A DNA stretch of 64,000 bases from positions 2,112,001 through 2,176,000 of the forward strand of contig OY970364.1 of the NCBI GenBank assembly GCA_963718565.1, given 5' to 3'. The position numbers were made by a program, and so were the translations under genes. The notes under the pieces were generated by a model. It searched no databases. It saw only the letters and a list, made by a program, of their open reading frames with translations, and was not told the DNA's origin. Positions within the stretch are counted from its first letter, which is position 1; every line of letters begins with the position of its first letter. Positions 2,366-61,599 of the stretch are shown here, piece by piece. The DNA is from an uncultured Verrucomicrobiae bacterium (GTDB lineage: Bacteria; Chlamydiota; Chlamydiia; Chlamydiales; Rhabdochlamydiaceae).

Positions 2366-2623
2366 GAGGGAATTGCAAAACTCCTTGCCGCATAAAATTG
2401 CGCTTTTGGCACCTGTCGCCTTGACGGCGGCTGCCTTCGGCCCCGGTTCGCTCTTCGCTCACCTGCATTGCTACTTACGAAGGTTCCCCGGACCTTCTTG
2501 TGTCTTCGCAGCCACTTATCCAAGTACGCTTTTGCCGCTGCCCACCGAACCCGCTGTGCGGGTTCTGGCAACAGGTGCCAAAATCATCGATTTTCTGCTG
2601 GCGAGGAGTTTTGCAATTCCCTC
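2366..2623. mobile_element. Family A miniature inverted-repeat element, longest copy (258 bp)
   Basis: TIRs GAGGGAATTGCAAAACTCCT/AGGAGTTTTGCAATTCCCTC, imperfect subterminal IRs, TSD TATC on both sides; just upstream of the rpsL RBS. Confidence 0.93.
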
Positions 2624-2798
2624 TATCATTCTTGATTTCGATTCTTTAAGAAAAAAAGAACCGACCAAAGTCTCTAAGATATTGGAGCACTATATCGTGA
2701 ATAGAGAATTTATTGCAAAACCAAAGCTTGCTGGGGTATAAACAAAAGTGTTAAAAAACTTTTTTAAAAATTACAGTTAGGATAAATACGAAATTAGG

Positions 2799-2820
2799 GA
2801 GGGAGTTTTGCAATTCCCTC
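2799..2820. mobile_element. Family A collapsed copy (22 bp)
   Basis: GAGGGAGTTTTGCAATTCCCTC flanked by TAGG/TAGG; 10 bp before the tsp ATG. Confidence 0.85.
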
Positions 2821-2830
2821 TAGGGTCCAT

Positions 2831-4837
2831 ATGCGAAGAAGAGGTCGTCGCTTCATGCTCATGGGAATTTTAAAATTTTTTATTTTGTATGTAGCAGCTT
2901 TTATCATCTTTGCATTTCAAAGTGGAACTTTTCAGCTTAAAAAAGAAGATGTTCGAAAGACGATGGAAGAAATGCTGGCCTACCACGTCGAATATAAAGA
3001 ATTTTCTCCACTGATTGCGAGACGGTCTCTAAAGATCTATATCGAACAGTTCGATCCTGACCGAGTCTATCTGCTTTCTAGTGAAGCCAAGCCCTATCTT
3101 GAACCTAAAGAGGACAGAATAAAATCCGTTGTCCAAAAGTATCGCCAAGATGATCTTTCCGAATATGCGAAATTGAACCGGATCATTCAGGATTCTATAG
3201 TGCGATCACGCGCTTATCGCGAAGAACTTGAAGAAGAGCTCATCGAGAGCAAGGAAGACCCCAAAATTATTGGAGGAACATATCTCGATTATGTCCGCAA
3301 TGAAAAAGAGTTGAAAGAACGGATAAGAAAGCAACTGATCCGTGTGCTTTGGATCGAGAAGCAGGTAGGCAATCTCCCCACATTGAATGCTCAGCAGCGC
3401 AAAAAGATTTTTGCGCTTTGGGAAAAGCGGTTTGCACGCATAGAAAACAGCTATCTGTCAAAAAATAAAAACGAGCACTACTTATGCATGCATGTTCTGA
3501 AAGCATTTTCCAAAAGCTTGGACGCTCATACTTCGTATTATAGCCCTGAAGAAGCATATGAGATGCGTACCAGTCTCGAAAAACAGTTTGAAGGGATCGG
3601 GGTCGTTTTGCGCGAAAGCATAGACGGTGTGGTCATTCACGATATGATCAAAGGAGGGCCTGCAGAACGTAGTGGAAAAATTTCTTCAGGGGATCTGCTT
3701 GTAGAAATCAACGGTCAGGCAATAGAAGGAGCTCCTTACGAAGAAGTGCTAAAACGTCTTCAAGGTGAAGGTAAGGAAAAAATTCAACTTGGACTCCGTC
3801 ATTCCGCTGGAGAAAGTAAATCGCAGGTATATAGGATTGATCTCAAGCGCGAAAAGATTGTCTTGCAAGATGATCGTGTTCACTATTCCTTCGAGCGCTA
3901 CGCTGACGGAATCATTGGAAAAATCAGCCTCCCTTCTTTTTATGAAAGCGTTGAGGGATCGAGCTGCGAAATGGAAATGCGCGACGCTTTAAGAGCCCTG
4001 AAAAGGCAGGGCAACCTCTTAGGCCTTGTTCTGGATATGAGGGAAAACTCAGGGGGCTTCTTAAATCAAGCTGTTAAAGTCGCTGGGCTGTTTGTGTCCA
4101 GCGGAGTGATCGTCATTTCCAAGTATGCGCATGGAGAAATGCAGTATTTGCGCGATCTCGATGGGCGCAGCTATTATAACGGCCCGCTAGTCATTTTAAC
4201 GTCTAAGGGCTCGGCCTCAGCAGCAGAGATTGTTGCGCAAGCCCTGCAAGATTATGGAACAGGCATCATTGTCGGGGATGAGCGAACTTATGGCAAGGGG
4301 ACAATTCAATATCAAACCGTCACAGATTCTGGGGCAACTTCTTTTTTTAAAGTCACCGTTGGCCGTTATTACACAGTTTCTGGGAGGTCCACGCAGATCG
4401 AAGGCGTGAAAGCAGACATTATCGTTCCCACTGCTTATTCTTTGCTGAATATTGGGGAAAGGTATTTAGAGTTTCCTTTGAAAAATGATCAAATTCCTTC
4501 GGCTTATAACGATCCGCTGATGGACGTCGATCCTCGCAATAAACCCTGGTTTCAGAAGAATTATTTGCCCAATCTTCAGAAGAAGCTCTCCGTGTGGACG
4601 CAAATGCTCCCACAGCTTCAGGGCAATAGCGCTTATCGCCTTAAGCAAAGTAAAGATTATGGGTTCTTCCTCAAAGTGCTCGAGCAAGACAAAGGCCAGT
4701 TGTCCTTCACCCCCACAGCGAAAGAAAATTGGGGGGCTGAAGATCTTCAAATGATGGAAGGCGTGAGTATTCTTAAAGACATGGCTATCCTTAAAACATC
4801 CTCCCTGCAAAAGACAGCTTTTGTTGGGTGCAACTAA
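2831..4837 (+). CDS. tsp: Tail-specific protease (S41A, PDZ)
   Basis: FEGIGVVL (PDZ), LDMRENSGG, SASAAEIV, TYGKGTIQ; next to rpsL as in Chlamydia. Confidence 0.93.
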   Translation: MRRRGRRFMLMGILKFFILYVAAFIIFAFQSGTFQLKKEDVRKTMEEMLAYHVEYKEFSPLIARRSLKIYIEQFDPDRVYLLSSEAKPYLEPKEDRIKSVVQKYRQDDLSEYAKLNRIIQDSIVRSRAYREELEEELIESKEDPKIIGGTYLDYVRNEKELKERIRKQLIRVLWIEKQVGNLPTLNAQQRKKIFALWEKRFARIENSYLSKNKNEHYLCMHVLKAFSKSLDAHTSYYSPEEAYEMRTSLEKQFEGIGVVLRESIDGVVIHDMIKGGPAERSGKISSGDLLVEINGQAIEGAPYEEVLKRLQGEGKEKIQLGLRHSAGESKSQVYRIDLKREKIVLQDDRVHYSFERYADGIIGKISLPSFYESVEGSSCEMEMRDALRALKRQGNLLGLVLDMRENSGGFLNQAVKVAGLFVSSGVIVISKYAHGEMQYLRDLDGRSYYNGPLVILTSKGSASAAEIVAQALQDYGTGIIVGDERTYGKGTIQYQTVTDSGATSFFKVTVGRYYTVSGRSTQIEGVKADIIVPTAYSLLNIGERYLEFPLKNDQIPSAYNDPLMDVDPRNKPWFQKNYLPNLQKKLSVWTQMLPQLQGNSAYRLKQSKDYGFFLKVLEQDKGQLSFTPTAKENWGAEDLQMMEGVSILKDMAILKTSSLQKTAFVGCN

Positions 4838-4870
4838 AATCTGTACTGAGTACAGATTTTAGTTGCACCC
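4826..4870. repeat. Family D perfect hairpin (22-bp arms) supplying the tsp stop codon
   Basis: GGGTGCAACTAAAATCTGTACT-G-AGTACAGATTTTAGTTGCACCC; arms resemble the termini of 52892..53069. Confidence 0.85.
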
Positions 4871-4941
4871 TTTCGTTCAAAAGTGATTGCTTAAAAATCC
4901 CCTGACTTTCTATCGTATTGTACTTGATTTGCTTACTATTT

Positions 4942-5014
<73 letters not shown>

Positions 5015-5402
5015 TATTTTTCGAAGAAAAATAAGCCAGAAAAAAAGCCACCTGCGTGGCTTTTGTCTGGAATCGAAGTGAAGCGGCATGCAGGCCGCGA
5101 ACCGGCTTTCAGGACGACGACGCACGGCCAGTGCGCATCGCCTGAAAGGATTCCAGTTCTGGCCAAACCTTTTACGTTCTTGCCGGCGTAAATGATCCGG
5201 AATATGTCCGGAGTTCTAGATTTCCTTAAATCACCCAAACGGGTGCTTCAAAAATTGTTTTGAGGCGCCAATTTGGAGTGTCTGTTCCGGATATATTCCG
5301 GATTTTACATAAGCACTCCCTTTTAAACAGCTAATTCTCAAGAGAGAAGATGGTACCGTCCTCAGGACTATGTATCCTCCTCGCGGGTTAAAAGGAGTTA
5401 AA

Positions 5403-6461: not shown

Positions 6462-6963
6462 AACTAGATGGTATCCACAAAACCAACAGGAGGATTCTAG
6501 CGTTCCCTCAAAACCTACTAAAACTAAAAAATTCAGCTTAGATAAAATTTTAGATCGAAGATATAGCTCGATTCTTAAACAGATGCAAGCGTCTTCAGCT
6601 GAAGAAATAATCCCTCCTGCAGATGAGAGGGATTTTGAAGCAAGGATCACAAAGTATGAAGAGGATATAAAGAGTAAGCTTTTCGGATTCATGTATTATT
6701 TGAAGGAGAGCAAAACTCTTAAACGAGATTCAAGTGTGGAGACCATTTTTGAAAATAAGAATGTGATCAATATGGTTAAATTGCGATTCACAATTCAGTG
6801 TCTAACACAAGCCTTGAAGCTATTAAAATGCTCTAAAAAGAGCATTTTAGAGTCCTCGTTAATCGGTCTATATCAGTCACCTCTTAAGTTTTATGTTGTT
6901 GATTATGTGAATGATTGGATAGCAGAGGCTTTTGAAAAAAATGGTCATATTTTTGACTCATAA
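6454..6963 (+). CDS. Hypothetical protein
   Basis: ORF whose ATG overlaps the end of the integrase gene; no recognised motif. Confidence 0.6.
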   Translation: MHKTRWYPQNQQEDSSVPSKPTKTKKFSLDKILDRRYSSILKQMQASSAEEIIPPADERDFEARITKYEEDIKSKLFGFMYYLKESKTLKRDSSVETIFENKNVINMVKLRFTIQCLTQALKLLKCSKKSILESSLIGLYQSPLKFYVVDYVNDWIAEAFEKNGHIFDS

Positions 6964-7081
6964 TTTGATGTCAATCAACGACAGTTTTTTTAATTTTCTG
7001 TTTCGTCAATCTGAAGCTTGTTTTGGTTTTTTAAGGAAATCTCCGGCAAGAGAATCCGTAAACATAACAAGGAGAAGATTT

Positions 7082-7276: not shown

Positions 7277-7375
7277 AAGGGTAAATGATAAAGGTTCCCA
7301 AATATAAAAAAGCTTTACATGCAGGAATTTTATTCAACAGCATAGCTTTAGATCCTAATCGTTACCCACAAGCTC

Positions 7376-9411: not shown

Positions 9412-9456
9412 TTTTATGTCCTTCGCCAAAAAAACCACCCTTTTTCAAAAAGCGCT

Positions 9457-10081: not shown

Positions 10082-10384
10082 ATGAAGCTTTTTAATACGC
10101 TCTTCGACACAAGGATAACAAGGTTGCTTTTTCATAAAGTTTATTGGAAAAGTAATTGGGATAATCTTATCAATTCTCTTTTGCCGCATGAACCTGATTG
10201 GGAGGTCGGGGAACACTTGATTGTGACGCCAGCCACAAATAAGGCTCGAGGTAATAGGCACCGCCTTAAAAACGATAAATGTAGTCATAAGGAGCTCTTT
10301 GCATATCTCTCATGGGATGCAGTTGGGAGATTCGTGGATATCTGTCGGTTAGATCAGGAAGTCAAAGAGCGTAAAGTCGCATAA
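10082..10384 (+). CDS. Hypothetical protein, stop codon supplied by a family A element
   Basis: 100-aa ORF; the terminal GCA TAA lies within repeat sequence. Confidence 0.4.
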   Translation: MKLFNTLFDTRITRLLFHKVYWKSNWDNLINSLLPHEPDWEVGEHLIVTPATNKARGNRHRLKNDKCSHKELFAYLSWDAVGRFVDICRLDQEVKERKVA

Positions 10385-10611
10385 AATCGCGCTTTTGGCA
10401 CCTATCGCCTTGGCGGCGGCTGCCTTCGGCCCCGGTTCGCTCTTCGCTCACCTGCTTTGCTACTTACGAAGGTTCCCCAGACCTTCTCGTGTCTTCGCAG
10501 CCACTTATCCAAGTATGCTTCACCGCCGCCAACCGAACCCGCTGTGCGGATTCTGGCAACAGGCGCCAAAATCATCGATTTTCTGCTGGTGAGGAGTTTT
10601 GCAATTCCCTC
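10378..10611. mobile_element. Family A element lacking its left TIR
   Basis: Close match to the interior and right end of 2366..2623; right TIR abuts the TAA of the XRE gene fragment. Confidence 0.9.
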
Positions 10612-10687
10612 TTAAGCAATCCGAATCTCCAAATGCTTACCCAATGCAGTAACAGCCATAACCAGCGACTTCAAGCTACAGCTCTTA
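10612..10687 (-). pseudogene. 3' fragment of the interrupted XRE-family HTH gene
   Basis: Reads KSCSLKSLVMAVTALGKHLEIRIA*, continuing ...IDRILDPY from ~13292. Confidence 0.7.
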
Positions 10688-10859
10688 TACCGAAATGAAC
10701 TCAAGATTTGGTTTTTGGCTACGTCGGGCAGCCACTGTATTTGAGCCCACCTGCATCGCACAACTTATTCAAGTTGTGCTGCTTCGGCGTCGCATACGCT
10801 GGCTCAAATTCAGGGCGCCTCCTTGCCAAATTCCCAAATCTTGAGTTCATTTCGGTATA
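10686..10859. mobile_element. Family B MITE (174 bp including terminal TA)
   Basis: Perfect 25-bp TIR TATACCGAAATGAACTCAAGATTTG; second copy inverted at 30372..30545. Confidence 0.9.
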
Positions 10860-10993
10860 TACTCTAGAAAATTGAAGTCTGGAGAGGATTGAGTTCAATT
10901 GTTTGGAAATTGTCGTTAATTCGCTTTTTCAGCATGTCTTTTAAATTAATAACGCCAGTGTTGAAAAAATCTCTAATTTTCTCAGTAAATTCA

Positions 10994-12294
10994 CAGGGCC
11001 ATTTAACTAAAATGTTTTGACATTTTCGAACAGAAAAATGTTGCCAAAATTCCCTTTAAGTACCCACCACCGAAAGTTGCTGCGCGCCTTACGGAGGCGA
11101 GCCCCCTTTCTGGATCTACAACTGCAGCCATGTTCATAGCCAAACGTCGAAACAACCCCATGTTCTCCGCACTATTCCCTCTATCCGTCAATGCATAATC
11201 CTCTTCAAAAATCACATCAGCTACCCAATGGCATTTGTTTTCTATGCTCCAGTGCTGTCGGGTCCATTTAGCAAAATCTTTGGCAGATGCTCGACGACTC
11301 GAAATATATAGCCGTCTAAATACCTCATTGGCAGTAGATCCAAGTTTTTGCCTCGTGGACCTTACTTCGATGAGACAGACTAAGTTTTTCCATTTGCCCG
11401 CATTTGGCAACCAGTCCAGGTCCTCGACGACTCGTACTTCTCGAATGTCGATTCGACCATGGCCTTTATCTACTTCCTGGTGAAACGAATGGGGGACTTC
11501 CTCCCATTCGACTGCGTGAGCTTGATCAAAAAAATTCTCCATTTCAGCGCACAGCGTTGGCTGGTTGTCCTTAACAGCCAGCAGATAATCTGCCTTCGCA
11601 TCAACGATTTGTTCTGCCGATTCGGCTACGGTGAAATGTGCATCTCCTGAAATAATCGCCCCCTCTACATTCACTTGCTCCAAAATGATTGGTAACGTGC
11701 TCTTTTCGACTGTTTTATTTGGGACCTTTTCCACGGCAAGACATAATCGATCCTCCGCTGCGAATAGCTCCACTACGTGTGTGACACCGCCTAGGAAATT
11801 TGCGCCTTTCATCCGTTTACCATCGATCGCCAATAGCTGATCGCGCAATGAAGCAGGAATTTTGCTGAACCATTTTTGCAAGTAGTGCTTGAGCGCACCA
11901 GGGGGTGTTTTCACTAAAAACCACCAGAGCGCTCCATGGGAAGGTGCTGAGAGCTCCTCACCTAGCAGAGAAGAAAACCACTCCTCCTGCAGAGAAACAT
12001 ATTCAGCGATTTCCTCAATCGTATTGCATCCACAAAAGAATCCGCAGAGAATAACAAGAGTCAAATACCAAACTGGATATAAGACACGTTTTTGATTACG
12101 TCGATAATCAGGGAAATCTGCAAACTCTCCCTTGACGGTTTCCGCGAATACACGGGCATCAAAATTCTTACTAGCTTCTAGGATTGTGGCGTCGATTGGC
12201 TTACGGCGTGACATAATAGGTCCTCCAAATTTGAGGAATTTATTATGCCATCTTAGCTGATCTGGTATCAAAAATTTTTAGTTAAATGGCCCTG
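10994..12294 (-). mobile_element. ISAs1-family insertion sequence, intact
   Basis: TIR CAGGGCCATTTAACTAAAA at both ends; 10-bp TSD AGTAAATTCA (10984..10993 and 12295..12304). Confidence 0.93.
11003..12214 (-). CDS. ISAs1-family transposase
   Basis: AIDGK, DYLLAVKDNQP, KGHGRIDIR, RQHWSIENKCHW motifs. Confidence 0.93.
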   Translation of the reverse strand: MSRRKPIDATILEASKNFDARVFAETVKGEFADFPDYRRNQKRVLYPVWYLTLVILCGFFCGCNTIEEIAEYVSLQEEWFSSLLGEELSAPSHGALWWFLVKTPPGALKHYLQKWFSKIPASLRDQLLAIDGKRMKGANFLGGVTHVVELFAAEDRLCLAVEKVPNKTVEKSTLPIILEQVNVEGAIISGDAHFTVAESAEQIVDAKADYLLAVKDNQPTLCAEMENFFDQAHAVEWEEVPHSFHQEVDKGHGRIDIREVRVVEDLDWLPNAGKWKNLVCLIEVRSTRQKLGSTANEVFRRLYISSRRASAKDFAKWTRQHWSIENKCHWVADVIFEEDYALTDRGNSAENMGLFRRLAMNMAAVVDPERGLASVRRAATFGGGYLKGILATFFCSKMSKHFS

Positions 12295-16260: not shown

Positions 16261-16295
16261 GAGGGAATTGCAAAACTCCTCGCCGCATAAAATCG
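16261..16295. mobile_element. Family A single-end fragment
   Basis: GAGGGAATTGCAAAACTCCTCGCCGCATAAAATCG. Confidence 0.85.
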
Positions 16296-16322
16296 ATTTC
16301 CGAATCTCCAATTAAAGAGAAA

Positions 16323-16351: not shown

Positions 16352-16357
16352 TGGGTT

Positions 16358-16814: not shown

Positions 16815-17560
16815 TTGAAAAAAAATCTCCTTCTGTTCTTCTCGATCGCCCCTCTGCTCGCATTTGGCGATGGCGGTTCTGTAACCAATAATCGCTATAA
16901 TGATTCCCTGATCGGAGGAGGCTCAGCAGGGCCGGCCGGACCTACTGGTCCAGAAGGGCCAGCAGGTTCACTGGGGTCAACCGGACCGACCGGGTCAGCT
17001 GGGCTAACAGGTTCAGCGGGGTCAACCGGACCGACCGGGCCAGTTGGGGTAACAGGTTCAGCAGGGCCAACTGGGCCCACCGGACCAGCAGGAACATCCT
17101 CGTCTTATGGGGTCAACTCAATTTTTCTTCATCGCAATCTATAAGTCTTACCACAGCCAATACATGGGTTGCTATTCCGTTTAATGCTTTTGGTCCCTCT
17201 AATAATGTGGACGGATCTACCTCTTCACCTGCAACGATCACGATACTGGAGGCAGGAGTTTATCAAATAAACATTAGTTTGTATTTCTCTTCGGAAGAGT
17301 CACTCGAGAGCACATTTACTCAAACAACTTATACGCTTGGCATAAGCACGGATACCAGTACTCCGGTAGCCTCTGCGGCGGTCTACGCTGGAGAAGCCGG
17401 CTTCTTCTCTCTTAACTATAGCGGCCTTGTGGAATTTTCTGCCAACGACACTATCCAGTTCTATATGCAGGCATCCGCTGTAGGTGGCGGTGGTTTTATA
17501 TTTGACAACGTGGTCACGATGGTAAACGGCAATGCCAGCGTACAGCAAATTGCAGAATGA
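16815..17560 (+). CDS. Secreted collagen-like (GPT/GxT repeat) protein with BclA/C1q-like C-terminal domain; frameshift near 17110
   Basis: Signal peptide and ~19 Gly-X-Y triplets; the downstream frame gives [11 protein letters not shown]...[15 protein letters not shown]. Confidence 0.7.
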
Positions 17561-18633
17561 TCCATGCAGCCAAAATTCCAACTTTTGAATCACTTCCGGT
17601 ATACTGGTTGTTGATTTGTTTTTTGTTTGCACCGCTCTACTCTTTGAGTGCTGCAGAGCGGTTAATCCGAGCAAAAATCATTGAAAGAAATAACATTTGT
17701 TTTCATCTATCTGCTGAATTTACCAAGAAATATGTTAAACAGCCTTTTCGTCTCTCCTATCCTCAAGAAATCAATCTTGAAAATCTTCCTCCCTCTATTG
17801 TAGACATCCCTTTGATTACCAATGTCATTGCTGTGATCTGGCTTTCTGGAAAAGAGTACACTATTGAAGAAATGGATGAGGATCTTTATTATTCGTTAAT
17901 TAAAATTAAAACGTTCTTTAAACGTTTTTTTTATAATACTTCCTGGGAAGGGGAACTAAAACCGGAACGGCTTGTAAACAATAGAGGGAATTGCAATTCC
18001 CTCAACAACTTATCTAACACCATTCCACGGTCTGCTACGTTATTTACAGGAGGGCTAGATTCTACAGCCACTGTCTTTCGTCATTTTGATGAGAACCTCA
18101 CCCTGATTTCTTTCAACGATCCCCATCGAACAGCTGTGGAATTTGCCAAGATGCACCATTTGGATTTCTATACAATTTACATGAATTACGATACTTGTTT
18201 AAAACTGACCTCCCTTGATAAGGCTTCTTGCGATATCTCTAAGTGGTTTTGGGATACTAGCATGGGGTTATCATGGGTGGGAGCTGCCACACCTTTTCTC
18301 TATGCGATGGGAATAGCGACATTGTATATCCCTTCTGGTTTTACTTGGCGCTCATTCATTTTTCCTGATGGTCAAACATTGCGTCAGCCCGCTTCTCCAC
18401 TCATTGATGAGAACTTAACTCCTACAGGATTGCGGGTTCAACATGATATATTTACGATGACAAGGACAGATAAAATACAATTTATCTCTACTTTTTGCGC
18501 GGAAAACAACGTTTCAAAACCCCAACTTGTCGTCTGTAATCATCACCAAAAAGCAGATGTTTCCTATTCCCATTGCAATCAAGGAATTGCAAAACTCCTC
18601 GCCAGCAGAAAATCGATGATTTTGGGTACGTAA
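17557..18633 (+). CDS. Hypothetical protein with PP-loop-like motif; internal family A palindrome and element-derived C-terminus
   Basis: FTGGLDS motif; ATGA overlap with the collagen gene; tail [15 protein letters not shown] is repeat sequence. Confidence 0.7.
   Translation: MIHAAKIPTFESLPVYWLLICFLFAPLYSLSAAERLIRAKIIERNNICFHLSAEFTKKYVKQPFRLSYPQEINLENLPPSIVDIPLITNVIAVIWLSGKEYTIEEMDEDLYYSLIKIKTFFKRFFYNTSWEGELKPERLVNNRGNCNSLNNLSNTIPRSATLFTGGLDSTATVFRHFDENLTLISFNDPHRTAVEFAKMHHLDFYTIYMNYDTCLKLTSLDKASCDISKWFWDTSMGLSWVGAATPFLYAMGIATLYIPSGFTWRSFIFPDGQTLRQPASPLIDENLTPTGLRVQHDIFTMTRTDKIQFISTFCAENNVSKPQLVVCNHHQKADVSYSHCNQGIAKLLASRKSMILGT
17984..18003. mobile_element. Family A collapsed 20-bp palindrome, in frame inside a CDS
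   Basis: GAGGGAATTGCAATTCCCTC flanked by AATA/AACA. Confidence 0.8.
18583..18625. mobile_element. Family A end fragment
   Basis: GGAATTGCAAAACTCCTCGCCAGCAGAAAATCGATGATTTTGG, identical to the start of the 41441 copy. Confidence 0.85.
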
Positions 18634-18648: not shown

Positions 18649-20946
18649 TTATTTGGATTCCGTAACTTTCTCGATTACAGATTCCGTAGTACTTCCGCCT
18701 TTAGATTCCGGAATCCTTTCAACGAAGCGAGGAAAGCCAGCTGCCTCAATTAACTGTCCAAGAATTTTTATCTTGTTATTAACTTCCGATGCAATAGCTT
18801 CAATTTCTTTAAGAGATTTTTCGGATAATTGTTTGGACATTTTTGGCTTCACAATTTGGTAAGAAAATTCGATGGAATGCGGATAAGTTGCCAGCTCGCC
18901 TGGATACGCTCTGCGTACAGTCGTGTATGTGTAAATGTAACAAAATGTCGCATCTATGCCTGAATCAACCTGGTCGGCACGAACGCTATGCACCTCAAAA
19001 TATGTACTCCCTAATACAATGTAAACACAGCGCGCTGGCTGTGAAACTTCTTTGCCTGTCTCTTTTTCTTCAATCGTTGAGAATATTTTAACATCTTTTT
19101 TAATAATGCTCTCTTTCGATGAATGGATGAGTTTATAGAGTTCTTCCAAATTAGAAATTGGCTCCTTGATGTATTTATGATTTAGAGCTCGATAAAATTG
19201 GAGCATGAACTGAATTGTTATCTCAACGCCAGAATGTTCCTCTCCATTGGATTTGGCAATGTTTTCCAAGCGGGAGATAACCCTTGGGTTGGTCAATAAT
19301 AATGCCTTATTAAACTCCGAAAGTGTTTGTTTGTTTTCAGTCAATGGATTTAAGAGGCTCTCTAAAAAATTAAAAATGCGAGCATGTCCTTCCAATGGAT
19401 CTTTAGGTGGGGGCAATTCTGACATAAATTTCTGGCTGAATTGAATGGCATTTTTTAAAAAATCATCCAGGAATGTTTGATCACCGAAAAAAGCCTTTGT
19501 GCTGAGGAGAGCCATGGACTCATCACCATAGTCCTTCAAGTCTTTGCCATATTGTTCCATTTTTTCTAAGTTATTAGAGTCGTCAGGCTTTGGAATTCTT
19601 CTAGGTTCCAAAAGAACATTGCGTTCCGGATCGATATAAATGATCGATGCTGTACTGACCATGTGCTGCCAATAGCGAAGAAATTCGACATCATATTTTT
19701 GGCGCTTTAGAGAATTGTCAAATTCCTTAAGGCAATCGATACAGAAAAGAGCATGGGGTTTATTTCTAGCTTTAAGCTCGTCTGAACGAAGTCGAATAAT
19801 GGTCTGTTGAGCTTTTTTATTTGCATCAATCCAAAGAATTTCAACCACTTGTATTTTAATTGCCCGAGCTATTGAGGTATAAACGAGGTTCCTATAAACT
19901 CCATCATAATCTGTTTTCAAAATTTTCCTTATCTCGTTTTCATTTTTATCAGATTTTTTAAGTTTTTTGAAAATTTTAAATAAATTTTTTTCTATTTGTG
20001 CAAGTGCTTGTTTTTGTACATTTGAGAAATCATCTGGCAGTTCATAATTCTCGGCAATGCGCTCCAAATTGTTCGCCAATTCAAGCATCACTTCTCGATA
20101 ATGGTGTAAAATTTTTATCTCATTTTTCTTTTTTTCTAGGTCAGAATTTTTTCCTTTTTCAATTGCTAGGTCCAGCCCCGGAATGAACATTTTGACCCGA
20201 TCATCATGACGACACTGTTTAAAATTGATAATTAGAAAATCTTTTAATTCATTATTGACAGTTTTTAAACAGGATTCGACATCCTCGAAAAAAGAGCTCT
20301 GCTCGAGTAGCTGTCTTAAATCTTGGAGAAAATCAATTTTAATATCTTTAGATTTTCCAGATGTGTTGGATTGTTTTACATGGATAAGGTCGTAAATTGT
20401 TTCTGCGGAGCTCAGCATCTCGTTATAGTTTTTATCGATTTCGCTGATTTGTTGCATGTCTTGGGGAACCTCTACCGCAGCTATAAAACTAGACGTGCAC
20501 GTTTTGAATTTCGCGATATATGTCAATTTCAATTTGGTAAGTTCAGGGGTATTAAAATCGCGATATTTGAAGCCTCTTGGCATTAATTCAAAATTTTTTC
20601 TTTTGGTGGCCCTTTCGCTTTCACTTTCGGATGTAGATCCACTGCCTGATTTGAGTCGAAGAGTGCCCACAGTGTTACTTTTTTCGGACGCTCTCTTTTG
20701 TATTGTCTTTGACGGGTCTCTGTCTCTTTTTTTAACATCGGATGTGATATCGCCTGTGGGTGGCATGTTTTTTCTTTTTCGGCCTGACCGCTGGCCAGTT
20801 AAGGCTGTTTTTGCGACATTTTCTGCCTGTGTTTTTGCAACGTTTTCTGTATTTTCCGTCTGTATTGGCTGCTGTTCGGCTGAATTTACCGATGATATTG
20901 TGAGAGGTTTTTTTTCTTGTGTAGGTGAAAGTTGTTGAGTAGTCAT
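18649..20946 (-). CDS. Large AT-rich orphan protein, possible secreted effector
   Basis: 765-aa ORF with GGAGG RBS; S/T/Q-rich N-terminus and basic clusters; no recognised domain. Confidence 0.75.
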   Translation of the reverse strand: MTTQQLSPTQEKKPLTISSVNSAEQQPIQTENTENVAKTQAENVAKTALTGQRSGRKRKNMPPTGDITSDVKKRDRDPSKTIQKRASEKSNTVGTLRLKSGSGSTSESESERATKRKNFELMPRGFKYRDFNTPELTKLKLTYIAKFKTCTSSFIAAVEVPQDMQQISEIDKNYNEMLSSAETIYDLIHVKQSNTSGKSKDIKIDFLQDLRQLLEQSSFFEDVESCLKTVNNELKDFLIINFKQCRHDDRVKMFIPGLDLAIEKGKNSDLEKKKNEIKILHHYREVMLELANNLERIAENYELPDDFSNVQKQALAQIEKNLFKIFKKLKKSDKNENEIRKILKTDYDGVYRNLVYTSIARAIKIQVVEILWIDANKKAQQTIIRLRSDELKARNKPHALFCIDCLKEFDNSLKRQKYDVEFLRYWQHMVSTASIIYIDPERNVLLEPRRIPKPDDSNNLEKMEQYGKDLKDYGDESMALLSTKAFFGDQTFLDDFLKNAIQFSQKFMSELPPPKDPLEGHARIFNFLESLLNPLTENKQTLSEFNKALLLTNPRVISRLENIAKSNGEEHSGVEITIQFMLQFYRALNHKYIKEPISNLEELYKLIHSSKESIIKKDVKIFSTIEEKETGKEVSQPARCVYIVLGSTYFEVHSVRADQVDSGIDATFCYIYTYTTVRRAYPGELATYPHSIEFSYQIVKPKMSKQLSEKSLKEIEAIASEVNNKIKILGQLIEAAGFPRFVERIPESKGGSTTESVIEKVTESK

Positions 20947-22415: not shown

Positions 22416-22470
22416 GAGGGAATTGCAAAACTCCTCACCGCATAAAATCGAGGGGTTTTGCAATTCCCTC
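22416..22470. mobile_element. Family A internally deleted copy (55 bp)
   Basis: Both TIRs present; TSD TAGA/TAGA. Confidence 0.9.
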
Positions 22471-26539: not shown

Positions 26540-26560
26540 GAGGAGTTTTGCAATTCCCTC
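26540..26560. mobile_element. Family A collapsed copy (21 bp) at the rpmA stop codon
   Basis: GAGGAGTTTTGCAATTCCCTC with TSD TTAC/TTAC. Confidence 0.85.
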
Positions 26561-30371: not shown

Positions 30372-30545
30372 TATACCGAAATGAATTCAAGATTTGGGAA
30401 TTTGGCAAGGAGGCGCCCTGAATTTGAGCCAGTGTATGCGGCGCCGAAGCAGCACAACTTGAATAAGTTGTGCGATGCAGGCGGGCTCAAATACAGCGGC
30501 TGCCCAACGTAGCCAAAAACCAAATCTTGAGTTCATTTCGGTATA
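30372..30545. mobile_element. Family B MITE, second copy (inverted)
   Basis: TATACCGAAATGAATTCAAG...CTTGAGTTCATTTCGGTATA; near-identical reverse complement of 10686..10859. Confidence 0.9.
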
Positions 30546-30708
30546 GATTTGACTACATCTTTACTATATTTACAAGTGAATATTCTATGCTTTTTCCTGA
30601 GGAAAACCGTGAAATTAAAGCATAATTTTTAACTTGAGAGTTAAGGCGAGCTCAGCTATTCTCCAACTCCCTTTCTTTGAAAGGGCTTGCTCGAGCGTAC
30701 TTGTTTAT

Positions 30709-30795: not shown

Positions 30796-30991
30796 ATTGG
30801 TTGGATGCAATGAGCATCCAACCTTCACTTAATGCTTCTGTGATAGAAATACTAAATTCAAAAGTTGTCGTTTTTCATCCACTTCAGAACTCTCGAAGAT
30901 TTCTCGAGAGCGGAGCGACTTGACACTCTACAGAAACCAACTCGAATCCTCATGCCCACAACTTGTAAATTTTCGAGAGTTTTTTATATAA

Positions 30992-31097
30992 AATTACAAA
31001 GCTGACGCGAAAAGGATGGTTTTTCGGGTCTGAAACAGGTTTTAGCAAATAAGACCCCGAAAAAATGTCCTTTTCGCGTTAGTTTTGCAATTCCCTC
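30992..31097. mobile_element. Family A' variant; truncates an F-box gene
   Basis: Right end ...CGCGTTAGTTTTGCAATTCCCTC; interior shared with 38716..38842; left end degenerate. Confidence 0.85.
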
Positions 31098-32479
31098 GGA
31101 TGACTGTCTTTTTTGAGCTGCTCCTGTAAATAGTTCCGAATCGCTTCGGCTTTTTGCGAAGAAGTTGAGCCCTGCCTTGTCCCATGAATTATCCCATGAA
31201 AGGCATGTTCTCCGCATCCCCAATAGTCATTGGGGTTGGGGATAAGGTTGAGGCGTTTAAGGATTTTGTATAATTCCCCATAGATTTCATTTCTTGCTCT
31301 TTTTGGCATTCTTGAGAATCGTTCCATAGCTTGATCGAAGATTTCAAAATCGTCGCTTTCGAGTTGGTTCGCAAGTGCATCAAAAACCGTATTGTACTCT
31401 GCCTTAAAATCCCAGACCTTGATTGTTTCAACGTTCGAGTCTGGGTACACGCGTGAATAAAGCTTGCCATCGGAAACGGCATGGAAACTCGAACAGGTAA
31501 TATATTCTACTTCCTCCCTACCAAATGTTTGTATGCGTTCTCTTGTGTTTAAATCCCAGATTTTGATCGCACTGTTGCAACCGTAGTGAGAGAAAGAATA
31601 GAGGTTGTCATCGGAAATCACAAGGAAGTAAATTCCACAAAGTCTATCTTCTATTGTTCCTATGTGAGTTTTTGTCTTTAAATCCCAGATGTTGATTATT
31701 CTTCGATAGCAATTATCACTGCGAGAGTCAGAATAATAAAGTGTGCCATCGGAAGAAACGGCAAGAGAACAGACCTCGTCATGCCCCTCAAGTGTTGCCT
31801 CACAAGAATTTGTCTCTAAGTTCCAGATTTTGATCTTTTTGTCCCAAGCGCTAGAGATGAGTGTTCCATCATCGGAAAGAGCAAGGCGGGATACTTCTTC
31901 CTCATGCCCACTCAGGGTTCCTATGCAAGTTTTTGTCTCTAGATCCCAGATCTTGATCTGGCCGTTCCAAGAGCTAGGACAAACGAGCTTTCTACCCGAA
32001 ATAACAAAAGAGTCGATCGGGTAGTGAACATCAAGTGTTTCTACGCAAGTTTTTGTGTCTAAATTCCAGATTTTAAATTTACCGCTTGGCTCGCCAGAAT
32101 AGAGCGTTTTCCCAGAAATGAATAGTGAGGAAATCTTGCTTCCCCCTAGATCAAGATTAATAGTAGACTCAGCATATATCCCATTGATAAGATTTAAATG
32201 TAAACGACGTTGATCTTGATAAACCTCCTTGAAATTCTGAATTTCTTTTGGAAGACGATAAAATGGAAAATGGTTTTTAAGTAACTGTTGACAAACTATC
32301 TCATTGCGCAATATTTGATTCCACAGATGGCAGGCAAATTGGCAATGGCCCAACTCTTGGACTCCCATACGCTTGAATATTTCTACAACGACATCGAAAG
32401 GCATCTCCAATATAAGGGAATTTTGCTGTATGGGAACAGATTGAGTATGGATAATGGAATTACTTGTAGGGTTGGTCAT
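31079..32479 (-). CDS. F-box/WD40 protein, C-terminally truncated paralog
   Basis: LEMPFDVVVEIF...CHLWNQI F-box; repeated IKIWDL; ends in element-derived RELQN*. Confidence 0.9.
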   Translation of the reverse strand: MTNPTSNSIIHTQSVPIQQNSLILEMPFDVVVEIFKRMGVQELGHCQFACHLWNQILRNEIVCQQLLKNHFPFYRLPKEIQNFKEVYQDQRRLHLNLINGIYAESTINLDLGGSKISSLFISGKTLYSGEPSGKFKIWNLDTKTCVETLDVHYPIDSFVISGRKLVCPSSWNGQIKIWDLETKTCIGTLSGHEEEVSRLALSDDGTLISSAWDKKIKIWNLETNSCEATLEGHDEVCSLAVSSDGTLYYSDSRSDNCYRRIINIWDLKTKTHIGTIEDRLCGIYFLVISDDNLYSFSHYGCNSAIKIWDLNTRERIQTFGREEVEYITCSSFHAVSDGKLYSRVYPDSNVETIKVWDFKAEYNTVFDALANQLESDDFEIFDQAMERFSRMPKRARNEIYGELYKILKRLNLIPNPNDYWGCGEHAFHGIIHGTRQGSTSSQKAEAIRNYLQEQLKKDSHPRELQN

Positions 32480-35309: not shown

Positions 35310-35329
35310 GAGGGAATTGCAATTCCCTC
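35310..35329. mobile_element. Family A collapsed 20-bp palindrome
   Basis: GAGGGAATTGCAATTCCCTC with TSD TCTA/TCTA; 30 bp before nrdR. Confidence 0.87.
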
Positions 35330-37490: not shown

Positions 37491-38734
37491 TCATTGAATT
37501 GATTTCGATCGGCGACGAATTGCTCAAAGGAAATGTGGTTAACACCAATGCTGCTTTTTTATGCCGTCAATTCATGCTGGCAGGATATGCCGTCTCTTGT
37601 CAAATGACGTTGCCAGACGCGCGAGAATCTTTAGCAAAAGGACTTACGGGAGCGTTACAACGCGCGGATCTGGTGATTGGCACTGGTGGGCTCGGTCCCA
37701 CATGTGACGATCGGACACGTGAGGTTGCCGCAGAACTTTTTCATTCGGAGTTTCATTTTGATCAGGCATTAGCTGACGACATCAAACGGCGCTTTGGCAA
37801 TCGAAATGTATCTTTGGAAAATCAAGCGAGGATGCCTTCGAAGGCCAAGATTCTGCATAATCGCATAGGTACAGCGCCAGGTTTGCTTTTTTTTGAAGGA
37901 GGCAAAACTTTGGTCCTTCTGCCAGGTGTTCCAAAAGAAATGGAACCGATGTTCTTAGAACAAGTCTTACCCTGGGTGCAAAAACAGTGGCCATTAAAAG
38001 CCAAAAAAGAAAGCGTTCAACTGTTTTTTTGTCTGATTAACGAAAGTCTTCTGGATCCTCATCTGCGTGAACTCATGATGCATTATCCTTCTGTAGAGGT
38101 AGGCATTTATCCAGCACATGGAACGCTCACTGTTGCCTTGCAATCTTCTCACAAATCACAACTCCATTCCTTTCAGAAGGAATTGATATCGCGCTTTAGC
38201 AATTATTGTTACAGTTCGCCAAACGGTAAAATTGAAGAGGCGCTCCACCATTGGTTTGTCACACATCAAAAGACATTAGCTTTTGCAGAATCCTGTACAG
38301 GAGGAATGCTTTCCATGCATGTCACGTCACTGCCCGGTGCCTCGGAATATTTTTTAGGTTCTTTTGTCGTCTATTCCAACGCGATGAAGCAGCAGATATT
38401 GGGTGTGTCCAAAGAAACGCTTGACTCTCAAGGTGCTGTGAGTGAAGCGGCCGTTAAAGAAATGCTCGATGGCGTTTTTAACAAAACCTCGGCAGATTTT
38501 GCCATTGCTGTTTCAGGCATTGCAGGCCCATCGGGAGGAACAGAACAAACGCCTGTCGGCACTATCTGCGCTGCGATTGGAGAAAGGGAAAAAATTCCTG
38601 ATGTGGGAACATTTAACTCCTTTGGCAACCGCCACACCATTACATTATTAGCTACGCAATGGCTTCTAGGTGCGCTCTGGAGAAAGGTGGAGAAGAGAAT
38701 ACCCGCATTTCCATTGAGGGAATTGCAAAACTAA
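37487..38734 (+). CDS. cinA: CinA/PncC-family protein
   Basis: IGDELLKG...NTNA, GGLGPTCDDRT, AESCTGG, SGIAGPSGG. Confidence 0.92.
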   Translation: MIIELISIGDELLKGNVVNTNAAFLCRQFMLAGYAVSCQMTLPDARESLAKGLTGALQRADLVIGTGGLGPTCDDRTREVAAELFHSEFHFDQALADDIKRRFGNRNVSLENQARMPSKAKILHNRIGTAPGLLFFEGGKTLVLLPGVPKEMEPMFLEQVLPWVQKQWPLKAKKESVQLFFCLINESLLDPHLRELMMHYPSVEVGIYPAHGTLTVALQSSHKSQLHSFQKELISRFSNYCYSSPNGKIEEALHHWFVTHQKTLAFAESCTGGMLSMHVTSLPGASEYFLGSFVVYSNAMKQQILGVSKETLDSQGAVSEAAVKEMLDGVFNKTSADFAIAVSGIAGPSGGTEQTPVGTICAAIGEREKIPDVGTFNSFGNRHTITLLATQWLLGALWRKVEKRIPAFPLRELQN

Positions 38735-38842
38735 CAAAACGGGGTGATTTTCTGGGGGAAATTATTTAGCTAATCTGAAACAGGTTTTAGCAAATAAGAC
38801 CCCGAAAAAATGTCCTTTTCGCGTTAGTTTTGCAATTCCCTC
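38716..38842. mobile_element. Family A' element (127 bp)
   Basis: GAGGGAATTGCAAAACTAAC...GTTAGTTTTGCAATTCCCTC; TSD CATT/CATT. Confidence 0.92.
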
Positions 38843-41362: not shown

Positions 41363-42189
41363 AGATCATTTTCTGCGATAACCATATTCTCGTTGTCTCC
41401 AAGCCCGCCGGTATCAGTACCCAGCCCCATGAAGCAGATAGAGGGAATTGCAAAACTCCTCGCCAGCAGAAAATCGATGATTTTGGCACCTGTTGCCAGA
41501 ACCCGCACAGCGGGTTCGGTTGGCGGCGGCGAAAGCATACTTGGATAAGTAGGAGAGCCGCCGCCAAGGCGACAGGTGCCAAAAGCGCGATTTTATGCGG
41601 CGAGGAGTCTTGCAATTCCCTCGATAACTTGCTCGATCAAGCTAAGGCCTGGCTTAAGAAACAATTTCAAAAGAATGGCCATGTTTTCCTCGAACCCATC
41701 CACCGGTTAGACAAACCCGTGAGCGGTCTTGTGCTTTTCGCAAGGACAAGCAAAGCATTGTCGCGTCTTCAAGAGATGATGCGCCAGCGCAAGATCGAAA
41801 AAACTTATTTCGCTTGGATCGAAGGAGTATTGCCCCAAGAAGGCACATTGGAACATTATTTGGTTCACGATGAATATCGTGCACGAGTTGTCGATAGATC
41901 TCACCCAAAGGGGAAGCTTGCCCGTTTACGCTATTTTCAGATCGAAAAATCTCTTGTTGAAATTCACTTGGAAACAGGCCGCTATCATCAGATCCGTGCG
42001 CAATTTGCTTATATTGGCTGTCCTATTGTTGGCGATCAAAAGTATGGAAGTACCCTTCAGTGGAAAAAAAAGGAGGGAATTGCTCTGCACCATGGACGGT
42101 TGAAATTTTTGCATCCTGTCACAAAGTCAGACATCTGTTTTGAGTCTTTAGAACCTTCATCTTTCGGAATGGACCGGCCGATTTTTTAA
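41359..42189 (+). CDS. RluA-family pseudouridine synthase with a 62-codon in-frame element insertion
   Basis: SKPAG, HRLDKPVSG (catalytic Asp), TGRYHQIR, PIVGDQKYG. Confidence 0.93.
   Translation: MKIIFCDNHILVVSKPAGISTQPHEADRGNCKTPRQQKIDDFGTCCQNPHSGFGWRRRKHTWISRRAAAKATGAKSAILCGEESCNSLDNLLDQAKAWLKKQFQKNGHVFLEPIHRLDKPVSGLVLFARTSKALSRLQEMMRQRKIEKTYFAWIEGVLPQEGTLEHYLVHDEYRARVVDRSHPKGKLARLRYFQIEKSLVEIHLETGRYHQIRAQFAYIGCPIVGDQKYGSTLQWKKKEGIALHHGRLKFLHPVTKSDICFESLEPSSFGMDRPIF
41441..41622. mobile_element. Family A element (182 bp) inserted in frame
   Basis: Both TIRs present; TSD GATA/GATA; 182+4=186 bp. Confidence 0.95.
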
Positions 42190-45596: not shown

Positions 45597-45602
45597 ACTA
45601 AT

Positions 45603-47884: not shown

Positions 47885-47889
47885 TTATC

Positions 47890-47910
47890 GAGGAGTTTTG
47901 CAATCCCCTC
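47890..47910. mobile_element. Family A collapsed copy (21 bp) at the icd stop codon
   Basis: GAGGAGTTTTGCAATCCCCTC with TSD TATC/TATC. Confidence 0.83.
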
Positions 47911-53373: not shown

Positions 53374-54931
<1,558 letters not shown>

Positions 54932-55270
54932 AAAGGACAAACTACTCACAGTAGTCCTTAAGGTTGAGACAAGCTTTATTTTGCCCACGTCACTTCTTTT
55001 CTGCTGTTAAGACACAGAAAATCACTAGTCAGTCGACTAGTTTAGCTATCTTGAAAGTCGAATAGAGTCAAAAAGAAAATAATCTCAAATAAAATAAAGC
55101 GACCAATAACAAGATAAGTGTGTAACAACACGGAAGTCTTAAAATGTGGTAAATCAGTAGAGACACTACTGAAACAATTCACTGATGAAAATTGGCGCTT
55201 GAGAACAAAAATTGTTTTAAGAACATTGGCGAAAAATTGAATACTTATTAACAGCATAAAAGTTTTATGT

Positions 55271-58218
<2,948 letters not shown>

Positions 58219-58375
58219 CTTTATTTTTCATCAATGGCATAGTCCCTTAGAATATTAGGAGCAAGTCATTGATGGCGCTGTTAAACGCCAATGAAACTTA
58301 AAACATATGAGAAGCTCTCAAGCGTCAATTTTCATAAGTGAGAAAGTTCTTTAAGACTCATTCGACAAATTTCGT

Positions 58376-58490
58376 CTTGGTGGCAATAGAGAAGGGGAAA
58401 TACCTGATCCCATCCCGAACTCAGAAGTCAAGCCCTTCATCGCCGATGGTACTGTACACAAGAGTATGGGAGAGTAGGTCGCCGCCAAGT
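58376..58490 (+). rRNA. rrf: 5S rRNA
   Basis: CTTGGTGGC...GATCCCATCCCGAAC...GCCGCCAAG. Confidence 0.95.
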
Positions 58491-58500
58491 TTTTCTTCAC

Positions 58501-58533
58501 GCCCCAGTAGCGAAAGTTCCTGGGGCTTTTTTT
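58501..58533 (+). terminator. Rho-independent terminator of the rrn operon
   Basis: GCCCCAG...CTGGGGC followed by a T run. Confidence 0.8.
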
Positions 58534-58538
58534 ATGTT

Positions 58539-60263: not shown

Positions 60264-60737
60264 GAGACTCTTCTTTGTTAAATTTTATTAATATGTTTTA
60301 TATAAGTGTGGGTTTATTTTTACATCAAAATCTTTTTTTTTTTAAGACTGAGAGTGTCATCACACGATCTAAATGATTTAACGGTATCCGTTAAATCATT
60401 TCCTTTAAACGACCATGTTATTAAACGATTAATTAAACCAATCGCCATAATTACCTTTTTAATTTTGCTTATTAACTAACAATTTAACTCTTTCTAATTA
60501 CCATTATAATATATATTTATAAAAATACACATAGAAATTACTTAATTATGTATATTTTTAGTTAAGAAGCTAATTCATTGAAAAGCAATGACAAGGGATG
60601 AAAATTTGTGGAAAATTAGGATGATGTCCAACTCTCTAAATATCAGAGATTTAAGAAAGAGTTCTTTTGATATTCTAAATAGGACGTTCTAAGTAAAGGT
60701 GGGATAGTCGCTTAGGTCGAAAGTGGATCTTGATAGG

Positions 60738-60765
60738 AAAGCCAAGAAGCGAACCTCTTGGCTTT
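60738..60765 (-). terminator. Putative terminator downstream of the RRM gene
   Basis: AAAGCCAAGA-loop-TCTTGGCTTT. Confidence 0.55.
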
Positions 60766-60782
60766 GAGAGCATTAGAAAATA

Positions 60783-61136
60783 TTAATGTTCACGACGGGA
60801 ACGGAAAGGACGATCTCCTCCACGGAAACCACCGCGATCCTCTCTTCCTCCACCACCACTGCGCGCAGTACGTGGTTGTTCTGGACGTGCGTCGTTGACG
60901 ATTAAAGTGCGTCCATTGAGAGCTTTTCCATTTAATCCTTCGACAGCTTTTCTAGCATCATCAGCATTTTCCATCTCAACAAAGCCGAAGCCTTTAGACA
61001 TGCCGGTGAATTTATCAGTCACGATCCGTACGGAAGCGATCGGACCAAAGGCGGAAAACAGTTCGTGGAGCTCTTCTTCAGTTGTGCTGAAGGGGAGGCT
61101 GCCCACATACAGTTTTTTATTCATTGCTTGATTCAT
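60783..61136 (-). CDS. RRM RNA-binding protein
   Basis: KLYVGSL (RNP2), KGFGFVEM (RNP1), Gly/Arg tail. Confidence 0.94.
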   Translation of the reverse strand: MNQAMNKKLYVGSLPFSTTEEELHELFSAFGPIASVRIVTDKFTGMSKGFGFVEMENADDARKAVEGLNGKALNGRTLIVNDARPEQPRTARSGGGGREDRGGFRGGDRPFRSRREH

Positions 61137-61450
61137 AATTCTCCAAAAAATATATACCTTAGCTCACTGATTATCAGGGGATTGTATTAGAATGTTTTCC
61201 ACAACTCCTAGATTAGGAGCTAAGTCTTTAGTTACCAATATTTAACGTTGACTCGGGATCTGATCACCACCGGAAGAAAAACTGCGCGTTGGGACAAAAA
61301 CACGGGATCAACTAACAATTCAAGCTAAGGTCAGATCAGCGACATGCCGATTAAACTTTAACTTACATCTAAGTTATCAGATGAGGGAATGGATGTCCAT
61401 CAAAAATGCTTCGTTTTCAAAAATGGTTAAAAAGATTATCACTGTTTTTA

Positions 61451-61599
61451 GAGGGAATTGCAAAACTCCTCGCCGCAGAAGATCGATGATTTTGGCACCT
61501 GTTGCCAGAGCAAGGCGAGCGAGAAGGATCGATTTGGCAAGGATCGATGTGGCAAAGTCGCAGGCTGTCAAAATTCACCAAACCTAACCGCGCGCCGTA
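61451..61599. mobile_element. Chimeric repeat: family A end (61451..61509) fused to family C (61512..61599)
   Basis: GAGGGAATTGCAAAACTCCTCGCC...GGCACCTGTTGCCAGA followed by sequence shared with 32767..32839. Confidence 0.82.

Follow-up and report, generated by a model that had tools for sequence, protein, structure and literature searches.

The window, a 64,000-bp stretch of the closed genome of an uncultured Verrucomicrobiae bacterium (Rhabdochlamydiaceae in GTDB; assembly GCA_963718565.1, contig OY970364.1, positions 2,112,001 to 2,176,000), carries a dispersed palindromic repeat, here called family A, at 14 sites between positions 2366 and 61509. With a probability of about 0.88, family A is a true family of MITEs (miniature inverted-repeat transposable elements), derived from and once moved by an IS1182-type DDE transposase, and now orphaned and decaying. 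It has the features by which bacterial MITEs are recognised: terminal inverted repeats (TIRs), target site duplications (TSDs) of fixed length, many small copies without a transposase of their own, empty sites, and an autonomous insertion sequence (IS) with the same ends, the last in other genomes. The genes of the window are 63-79% identical in nucleotide sequence to metagenome-assembled genomes (MAGs) labelled Rhabdochlamydiaceae, Waddliaceae and Parachlamydiaceae, with gene order partly kept; on this basis the source of the DNA is accepted as a chlamydia.

Family A in the window

The terminus of the family, GAGGGAATTGCAAAACT, matches the window 16 times (at most two mismatches, both strands). 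Shuffling the window 100 times gave an expectation of 0.03 matches and never more than 1. Each of the 14 sites listed in a preliminary description of this DNA contains the terminus, whole or in recognisable part, but some coordinates needed small corrections (now 2799-2820, 18583-18625, 26540-26560, 30986-31097 and 47890-47910). A BLAST census with consensus sequences added no copies in the window. Nine sites are two-ended, and five are one-ended or truncated (10378-10611, 16261-16297, 18583-18625, 30986-31097, 61451-61509).

A full copy of subtype A258 (2366-2623, minus strand, 258 bp) lies in intergenic DNA between TATC duplications and is identical to the consensus at 249 of 258 positions. 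The full copy of subtype A182 (41441-41622, plus strand, 182 bp, TSD GATA) is identical to its consensus at 181 of 182 positions and sits inside a pseudouridine synthase gene. It is in frame (186 bp, or 62 codons), and the PF00849 domain spans the insert. Subtype B is represented by a 127-bp copy (38716-38842, TSD CATT) between two convergent genes, cinA-like and NADAR; the cinA-like open reading frame (ORF) now ends 18 nt within the element. A 55-bp intergenic derivative (22416-22470, minus strand, TSD TAGA) is explained by a single internal deletion with 2-bp junction homology. The shortest two-ended forms are remnants of 20-22 bp. One of 22 bp (2799-2820, TSD TAGG) precedes the ATG of a tail-specific protease gene (Pfam) by 11 bp, and one of 20 bp (35310-35329, TSD TCTA) lies upstream of nrdR (Pfam). 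A 21-bp remnant (26540-26560, TSD TTAC) is found at the stop codon of a minus-strand gene, and another (47890-47910, TSD TATC) between the stops of the convergent genes for 2-oxoacid dehydrogenase E2 and isocitrate dehydrogenase. The 20-bp remnant GAGGGAATTGCAATTCCCTC (17984-18003) occurs within ORF 17557-18633, which has no Pfam match.

The final codons of the same ORF are provided by a one-ended degenerate fragment (18583-18625, plus strand). The consensus BLAST search recognised an A258 copy of 234 bp that has lost 24 nt of one end (10378-10611, minus strand) and one-ended fragments of 37 nt (16261-16297, minus strand) and 59 nt (61451-61509, plus strand). A one-ended, IS-derived fragment of subtype B (30986-31097) has within its terminus the stop codon of gene 31079-32479; this minus-strand gene encodes a eukaryote-like F-box and WD40 protein of 466 aa. 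In all, two of the 14 copies lie within ORFs (41441, 17984), four supply or touch a stop codon (18583, 30986, 38716, 47890), and the others are intergenic.

Family A in the genome

The whole-genome search with the 17-bp terminus that the preliminary description had proposed returned 292 matches, 188 of them exact, in the closed genome (2,284,058 bp, 43.6% G+C). When the consensus sequences were run together with the parent IS as BLAST queries, 166 family A loci were counted, which occupy 21.6 kb or 0.95% of the genome. When each forward terminus was paired with the next reverse terminus no more than 800 bp away, 82 two-ended elements were obtained and 128 termini remained unpaired. Element sizes range from 20 to 563 bp, with peaks at 182 bp (22 copies; 25 at 181-183 bp) and at 257-259 bp (18 copies). 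The two interior subtypes that had been seen to share these ends are real, the former A' corresponding to subtype B.

The 17-base ends are perfect inverted repeats, and imperfect pairing reaches about 55 bases inward. Folding against shuffled sequences confirmed the long copies as extended imperfect hairpins, with energies of -82.7, -68.5 and -33.1 kcal/mol (as single-stranded DNA) and z-scores of -17.3, -9.6 and -8.1. No Rfam family matched the elements at gathering score; the single match at E<=1, to U6atac (E=0.28), is at chance level.

Target site duplications and empty sites

All eight 4-bp duplications previously reported for the window (TATC, TAGG, TAGA, TTAC, TCTA, CATT, GATA, TATC) are present. 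The ninth two-ended copy, at 17984, is flanked by AATA and AACA, a match in three of four positions. Across the genome, a perfect 4-bp TSD flanks 53 of the 82 two-ended copies, compared with 5, 2, 1 and 0 copies for lengths of 2, 3, 5 and 6 bp. With the 20-22-bp forms added, 82 of 173 candidates have a 4-bp TSD, a lower fraction because many of these candidates are solo arms. In this larger set, flanks shifted by 1-6 bp gave 0-2 matches, and shuffled flank partners 3.8 on average and at most 11 (1000 shuffles); both controls exclude chance as the source of the duplications. The target is T-W-W-A, with T in position 1 in 63/82 copies and A in position 4 in 51/82. It tends to be preceded by a pyrimidine and followed by a purine.

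Sites that are empty and hold a single target, as expected by the preliminary description, were found for six window copies (2366, 2799, 26540, 35310, 38716 and 41441) in species of the same genus; the flanks compared have 64-87% identity to the window. At the 41441 site, seven relatives continue uninterrupted; the closest reads ...GAAGATAATTTACTT..., while the window reads ...GCAGATA, the element, and then GATAACTTGCTC.... The 38716 site has one target copy in four relatives (G013, G005, G003 and G001). In the genome G005, the alignment gap at the 2366 site measures exactly 262 bases (258 + 4), and G004 is empty there too. G004 also has a single TAGG at the 2799 site. The site at 35310 is empty in five relatives, and the remnant at 26540 is absent from relatives. 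For 22416 and 30986, the flank is conserved on one side only in relatives, and the genes that flank 47890 are separated there by additional genes. The ORF that hosts 17984 had no match in the five relatives searched.

Two of these places are occupied by other elements in sister species. G012 carries a 179-bp palindromic element with the ends TACACAGAGTGATTCAAAAGTT (L113, about 1321-1501) at the site matching 41441, and G004 a palindromic element of about 117 bp with the ends AGACCTCTTTCGA (L100, about 1632-1748) at the site matching 38716. Insertions have entered these places repeatedly.

The parent insertion sequence

The exact 17-mer was scanned in one genome per species and occurred at no fewer than 97 loci. 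By our own arithmetic, chance alone would give a random 17-mer about 70 matches in DNA of this extent, so single matches mean little. Among the matches listed, a MAG labelled Rhabdochlamydiaceae has two loci (L055, L073) with a 1575-bp IS that bears the 17-base terminus at both ends and is flanked by the TSDs AATG and TTTT. A 1555-bp element, likewise with the terminus at both ends and with no duplication, is carried on a 4-kb contig from a different MAG. Autonomous ISs with family A ends were found at L055, L073 and L066, again among the matches listed and all in other genomes. Each encodes one protein of 383-390 aa (390 aa in the 1575-bp IS) with the domains DUF772 (PF05598, 33 bits) and DDE_Tnp_1 (PF01609, 52 bits), both above their cut-offs.

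The best plasmid match of this transposase is annotated as 'IS1182-like element ISUnCu17 family transposase' and has 47% identity across 97% of the query; the name comes from the RefSeq annotation of the Aeromonas plasmid NZ_AP026405.1. The plasmid copy has the ends GAGCCTCTTGCAAAA / TTTTGCAAGAAGCTC and the TSD ATGA. It shares with family A the end pattern GAG-N4-TTGCAAAA and a 4-bp TSD (GAGCCTCTTGCAAAA/ATGA versus GAGGGAATTGCAAAACT/TWWA), and with the parent IS the DUF772 and DDE_Tnp_1 transposase, which is similar over its full length. It differs in end positions 4-7, and the window elements are non-coding and fall in the 20-563-bp range. The preliminary description had been reminded of IS5/IS1182-type elements by the GAG starts and the 4-bp TSDs. 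This origin is borne out by the full-length IS, which has the same 17-20-bp ends, 4-bp TSDs and a DUF772 and DDE_Tnp_1 transposase and resides in another chlamydial MAG, its nearest named relative being IS1182-like. The full-length IS with the same TIR for which a search had been advised thus exists, in other genomes only. By analogy with this family, an IS1182-type transposase would recognise GAGGGAATTGCAAAACT ends and insert by a 4-bp staggered cut at T-W-W-A.

The remains of such an IS are found in the own genome. Eight short matches to the parent transposase were detected, the longest of 80 aa, and several sit in subtype B, e.g. in a 422-bp copy (genome positions 439162-439583) and a 563-bp copy (94707-95269). 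By BLAST, these copies consist of the IS ends and internal IS pieces (61-76% identity). The transposase scraps identify subtype B as internal-deletion derivatives of the IS.

In MAGs labelled by their depositors as Chlamydiae, Verrucomicrobia, Victivallales and Acidobacteriota, at least 41 distinct short inverted pairs of the terminus occur with different interiors; ten have perfect 4-bp TSDs and 21 match in at least three of four positions. Within the genus, termini number 62 in G008, 57 in G009 and 23 in G010 and are rare in some other species. Two other families of the order have the terminus as well (G032, G036). In metagenomes, 7999 of 8000 scored candidates passed as relatives of the parent transposase, the best 120 being 67-95% identical. 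The wide spread of the ends and the thousands of close transposase relatives indicate an IS group that is widespread and little catalogued.

Decay of copies

Subtype A182 equals A258 less a central block of about 76 bp. The genome G001 holds an A258-like element with this block and the ends GAGCCAATTGCA, which marks the long form as older. When 57 shorter forms were scored as one internal deletion of a consensus, A182 was the best parent for 55. The A-type forms fit with few mismatches, and the B-type forms fit poorly, as expected. The fitting forms have 0-7 bp of homology at the junction; one ill-fitting B-type form lies outside that range. In the 20-bp forms, the junction falls at TTGCAA, or a one-base variant, common to both ends (12/12); this hexamer is palindromic and is therefore present in both ends as a direct repeat. 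The 21-bp forms are joined at GAGG or CCTC and the 22-bp forms at 2-3 bases. One form, GAGGGAATTGCAAAACCCCTC, shows no junction homology against the consensus, but a CCCTC homology against an arm variant with C at position 17 (T17C), which is common in the genome. A perfect TSD flanks 29 remnants (12 of 20 bp, 13 of 21 bp and 4 of 22 bp), and the remnant sites at 2799, 26540 and 35310 are empty in relatives.

The size series suggests that copies decay by internal deletion between short direct repeats that the palindrome itself creates, and that 20-22-bp remnants with both tips and the TSD would be the end of this process. Foster and colleagues reportedly described 'nearly precise excision' remnants of Tn10 in 1981. 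The family A remnants resemble them: the interior is lost between short direct repeats inside the inverted ends, and a palindromic remnant stays behind with its TSD intact. Unlike the Tn10 case, a natural series from 137 down to 20 bp is spread across one genome, in place of a genetic assay, and the mechanism is deduced from the products.

An alternative holds that the 20-22-bp forms are minimal mobile elements that kept both transposase-binding tips and transposed as such. It would account for the recurrence of the same short form at many loci with different TSDs, in the numbers given above for the remnants, and for three 56-bp copies with one junction and two 72-bp copies with another. However, the recurrent junctions all fall at short direct repeats (TTGCAA, GAGG/CCTC, or CCCTC in the T17C variant), where independent recurrence is expected, and a 20-bp element retains only 10 bases of each 17-base end. 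Transposition of the short forms is for these reasons considered unlikely, and decay in place by internal deletion is preferred.

Location relative to genes

Locations were counted for 111 copies, made up of the 82 pairs plus those 29 remnants that have a perfect TSD. On a map of stop-to-stop ORFs, the midpoints of 81 lie outside long ORFs (at least 150 codons), though these cover 85% of the genome. A long-ORF stop codon occurs inside, or within 30 bp of, 43 of the 111 elements, as against 23.6 +/- 4.5 for random intergenic placement (maximum 36, 300 trials). Only six copies are firmly internal, with at least 50 codons on each side, versus 69% of random points, and in all six the length plus 4 is divisible by 3. 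Another 13 start a few codons past a possible start codon and are N-terminal candidates. In seven cases an ORF ends inside the element, and in two it reads through to an early stop. Up to 19 copies are thus in frame inside ORFs. Pfam domains were identified in 15 of these 19 hosts, including an RluA-type pseudouridine synthase (the window copy), TruA, MutY, TsaB, a chorismate-binding enzyme, a SET-domain protein and an ABC ATPase.

The concentration at gene ends and inside genes noted before thus holds for the 3' ends, which are enriched, while copies inside genes are a minority (6 firm and 13 N-terminal of 111). The distribution is consistent with a filter by selection, which would leave survivors mostly in intergenic DNA and crowded at gene 3' ends. 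Within genes, a copy would survive only if its length and TSD together are divisible by three and the reading frame stays open.

The 257-bp type and its central core

ORFs contain all seven 257-bp copies and also an eighth, of this type but damaged at one end; they contain not a single one of the 11 copies of 258-259 bp. The 257-bp type has CGCAGTGC in place of the stop-bearing CGTAAGTAGC of the 258-bp type, and one extra G. Three common changes remove two stop codons and restore the frame, length plus 4 being 261. Its version of the central block is that of sister species. Three hosts are clearly interrupted within conserved sequence, namely the ABC ATPase, the chorismate-binding enzyme and the SET-domain protein. 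Survivorship explains the absence of stop-bearing copies from genes, but it does not explain the absence of stop-free copies from intergenic DNA.

The difference between the two types lies in a structured central core of about 76 bases (window positions 2433-2513). This core also occurs in at least two other MITE families of the genome, which have different ends (about 12 copies, 73-86% identity; e.g. genome positions 762118-762186 and 872802-872870), and in MITEs of G013, G017 and G001. An RNAalifold consensus from a small sample (15 sequences, no phylogenetic control) contains a closing helix and an inner hairpin with a few compensatory pairs. A conserved GCAGGTGAGCGAAGCGAAC stretch follows the core hairpin. 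The core has no Rfam match. Tentatively, it might be a shared functional cassette captured by different transposon ends, whose stop-free version lets elements persist as protein segments, so that one subfamily may be adapted to life in genes; this proposal is possible and rather doubtful.

Comparison with other palindromic elements

Rickettsia palindromic elements are repeats of palindromic structure in an obligate intracellular bacterium; some of them are inserted in frame within genes without breaking them. The Correia elements of Neisseria are short hairpin MITEs with long inverted ends, abundant and located at gene ends, and they duplicate TA. To our knowledge, their genomes hold no transposase for them and no parent IS is known. 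The parallel previously drawn with both systems stands in behaviour and does not extend to membership. Family A resembles the Rickettsia elements, which were compared by behaviour and not by sequence, in its firm and N-terminal in-frame cases; it differs in its clear TIRs, 4-bp TSDs, identified parent IS and mostly intergenic copies. With the Correia elements it shares the short, hairpin-forming copies, their abundance, their place at gene ends and the lack of a transposase in the genome. Unlike them, it has a 4-bp TSD (a 2-bp duplication fits only 5/82 copies) and an identified parent IS.

Repetitive extragenic palindromic (REP) sequences and bacterial interspersed mosaic elements (BIMEs) make no target duplication and are spread by a REP-associated tyrosine transposase (RAYT). 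Strong hairpins and the enrichment beside stop codons would suit REP-like or regulatory hairpins that are retained because they serve the host, for example in termination or mRNA stability, and spread by a RAYT-type transposase or by recombination. The 4-bp TSDs with clean empty sites, the DDE-type IS with identical ends and the remains of a DDE transposase gene in subtype B all contradict this explanation, which is regarded as highly improbable; no search aimed at RAYT genes was made. In the MITE interpretation, terminator function may be a secondary effect of the hairpins.

Probable loss of the transposase

No terminus-bounded element that encodes a transposase was found in the window or in the closed genome, in agreement with the earlier statement on the window. 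Together with the TIRs, the 4-bp TSDs and the six empty sites, this supports the description of family A as a non-autonomous MITE. Inverted terminus pairs 600-4000 bp apart enclose no transposase in the own genome, except in one copy with a nested unrelated IS. As possible sources, the resident ISs were rejected: an IS256-like element and five DDE_Tnp_1 families (2074, 1182, 1302, 1814 and 1336 bp) all have unrelated ends. Among 40 relatives, 18 of them of the same genus, one degraded transposase copy was the only match at E<=1e-10; these genomes are mostly drafts, for which absence is not thereby demonstrated. Several of the 40 nevertheless hold 9 to 62 termini.

The A182 and A258 copies are on average 95.5% alike. 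None are identical, and the closest pairs are 2-3 bases apart, while copies of the resident ISs are 99.4-100% alike. As no intact transposase of the kind remains in the closed genome, the family has most likely lost its mobility by now. It is probably orphaned here and inactive. The probable history is a burst of family A once the lineage had separated from the sampled sister species, and then loss of the transposase. Mobilisation in trans, as originally suggested, is accordingly retained as a proposition about the past only, since no transposase source was found in the own genome or the 40 relatives.

The opposite view is that the family is still active, cross-mobilised by another resident DDE_Tnp_1 IS or by the transposase of an unassembled plasmid. 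The genome has 45 DDE_Tnp_1 matches and several young IS families, some A182 copies are only 2 bases apart, and a single-contig assembly may lack a plasmid. None of the six resident IS families examined, though, has GAG....TTGCAAAA-like ends. No identical pair exists in family A, in contrast to the nearly uniform resident ISs, and the many decay products fit a family that is not replenished. Present activity is therefore judged quite unlikely, and the orphaned, decaying MITE family remains the preferred interpretation.

Several observations weigh against that interpretation. A perfect duplication is absent from 29 of the 82 two-ended copies. Transposition is unobserved: contigs of four metagenome runs with patchy cover match parts of the window exactly, yet they show no site in both occupied and empty form, and none bridges an element in empty form. 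The transposase scores 86.7 bits with the NCBIfam IS1182 model, which is still the best of seven models, against a cut-off of 270. In this it departs from the IS1182 family proper, and, as the cut-off is not reached, the name rests on the 47%-identical named relative and the shared end features. Subtype A (A258 and A182) matches the IS in about 17 end bases only and is tied to the transposase by its ends alone. Most of the relatives are represented by draft MAGs, an assembly type that frequently loses IS copies, and the transposase could still reside on a plasmid or in sequence absent from the assembly. The counts of locations are approximate, as the gene map consists of crude stop-to-stop ORFs.

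Other repeats and genes of the window

A resident IS of about 1302 bp (10991-12294) encodes a 422-aa DDE_Tnp_1 transposase, has the ends CAGGGCCATTTAACTAAAA and exists in about 12 near-identical genome copies. It lies beside the family A copy at 10378-10611, which is truncated. Another MITE-like family, unrelated to family A and about 177 bp long, has the ends TATACCGAAATGAACTCAAGATTTGG and is present at 10686-10862 and 30372-30548; it has many copies (79-90% identity) in species of the same genus.

Two odd end types were examined. The end type 'GGGTGTAAAT', considered as a possible IS end, was dismissed, as it reflects a different small palindromic element inserted in the terminus. Such a small palindromic element (GGGTGTAAATAAAAGTGTTGAGGCTAGGCATT...) is nested in family A termini at positions 20581-20665, 63128-63215 and 1020000-1020096 of the genome. 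The end type 'CTCAGGT' (5 copies) runs into unique sequence. Five loci (358673, 582256, 1161154, 1356990 and 1884452) share GAGGGAATTGCAAAACTCAGGT and continue into unrelated unique sequence, with no second end or TSD evident.

A tRNA gene (4942-5014) is followed by a repeat unit (region 4942-5290), which forms tandem arrays at the corresponding place in G001 and G013. Positions 53374-58490 comprise a complete rRNA operon (16S, 23S, 5S).

Significance

The literature searched contained no account of such a family in Chlamydiae, in line with the preliminary description, which knew of none; ISfinder was outside that search. The Chlamydiae thereby gain a documented MITE family with an identified parent IS. 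In MAGs labelled Verrucomicrobia, Victivallales and Acidobacteriota, the 17-base terminus also stands at the head of different short elements. In the genome studied, the terminus marks about 1% of the DNA and accounts for odd extensions at gene ends, for inserts of 62 and 87 codons in enzymes, and for contig breaks in related MAGs. One closed genome displays the life cycle of such a family, from the IS (as fragments) and its deletion derivatives to the amplified MITE and the 20-22-bp remnants.

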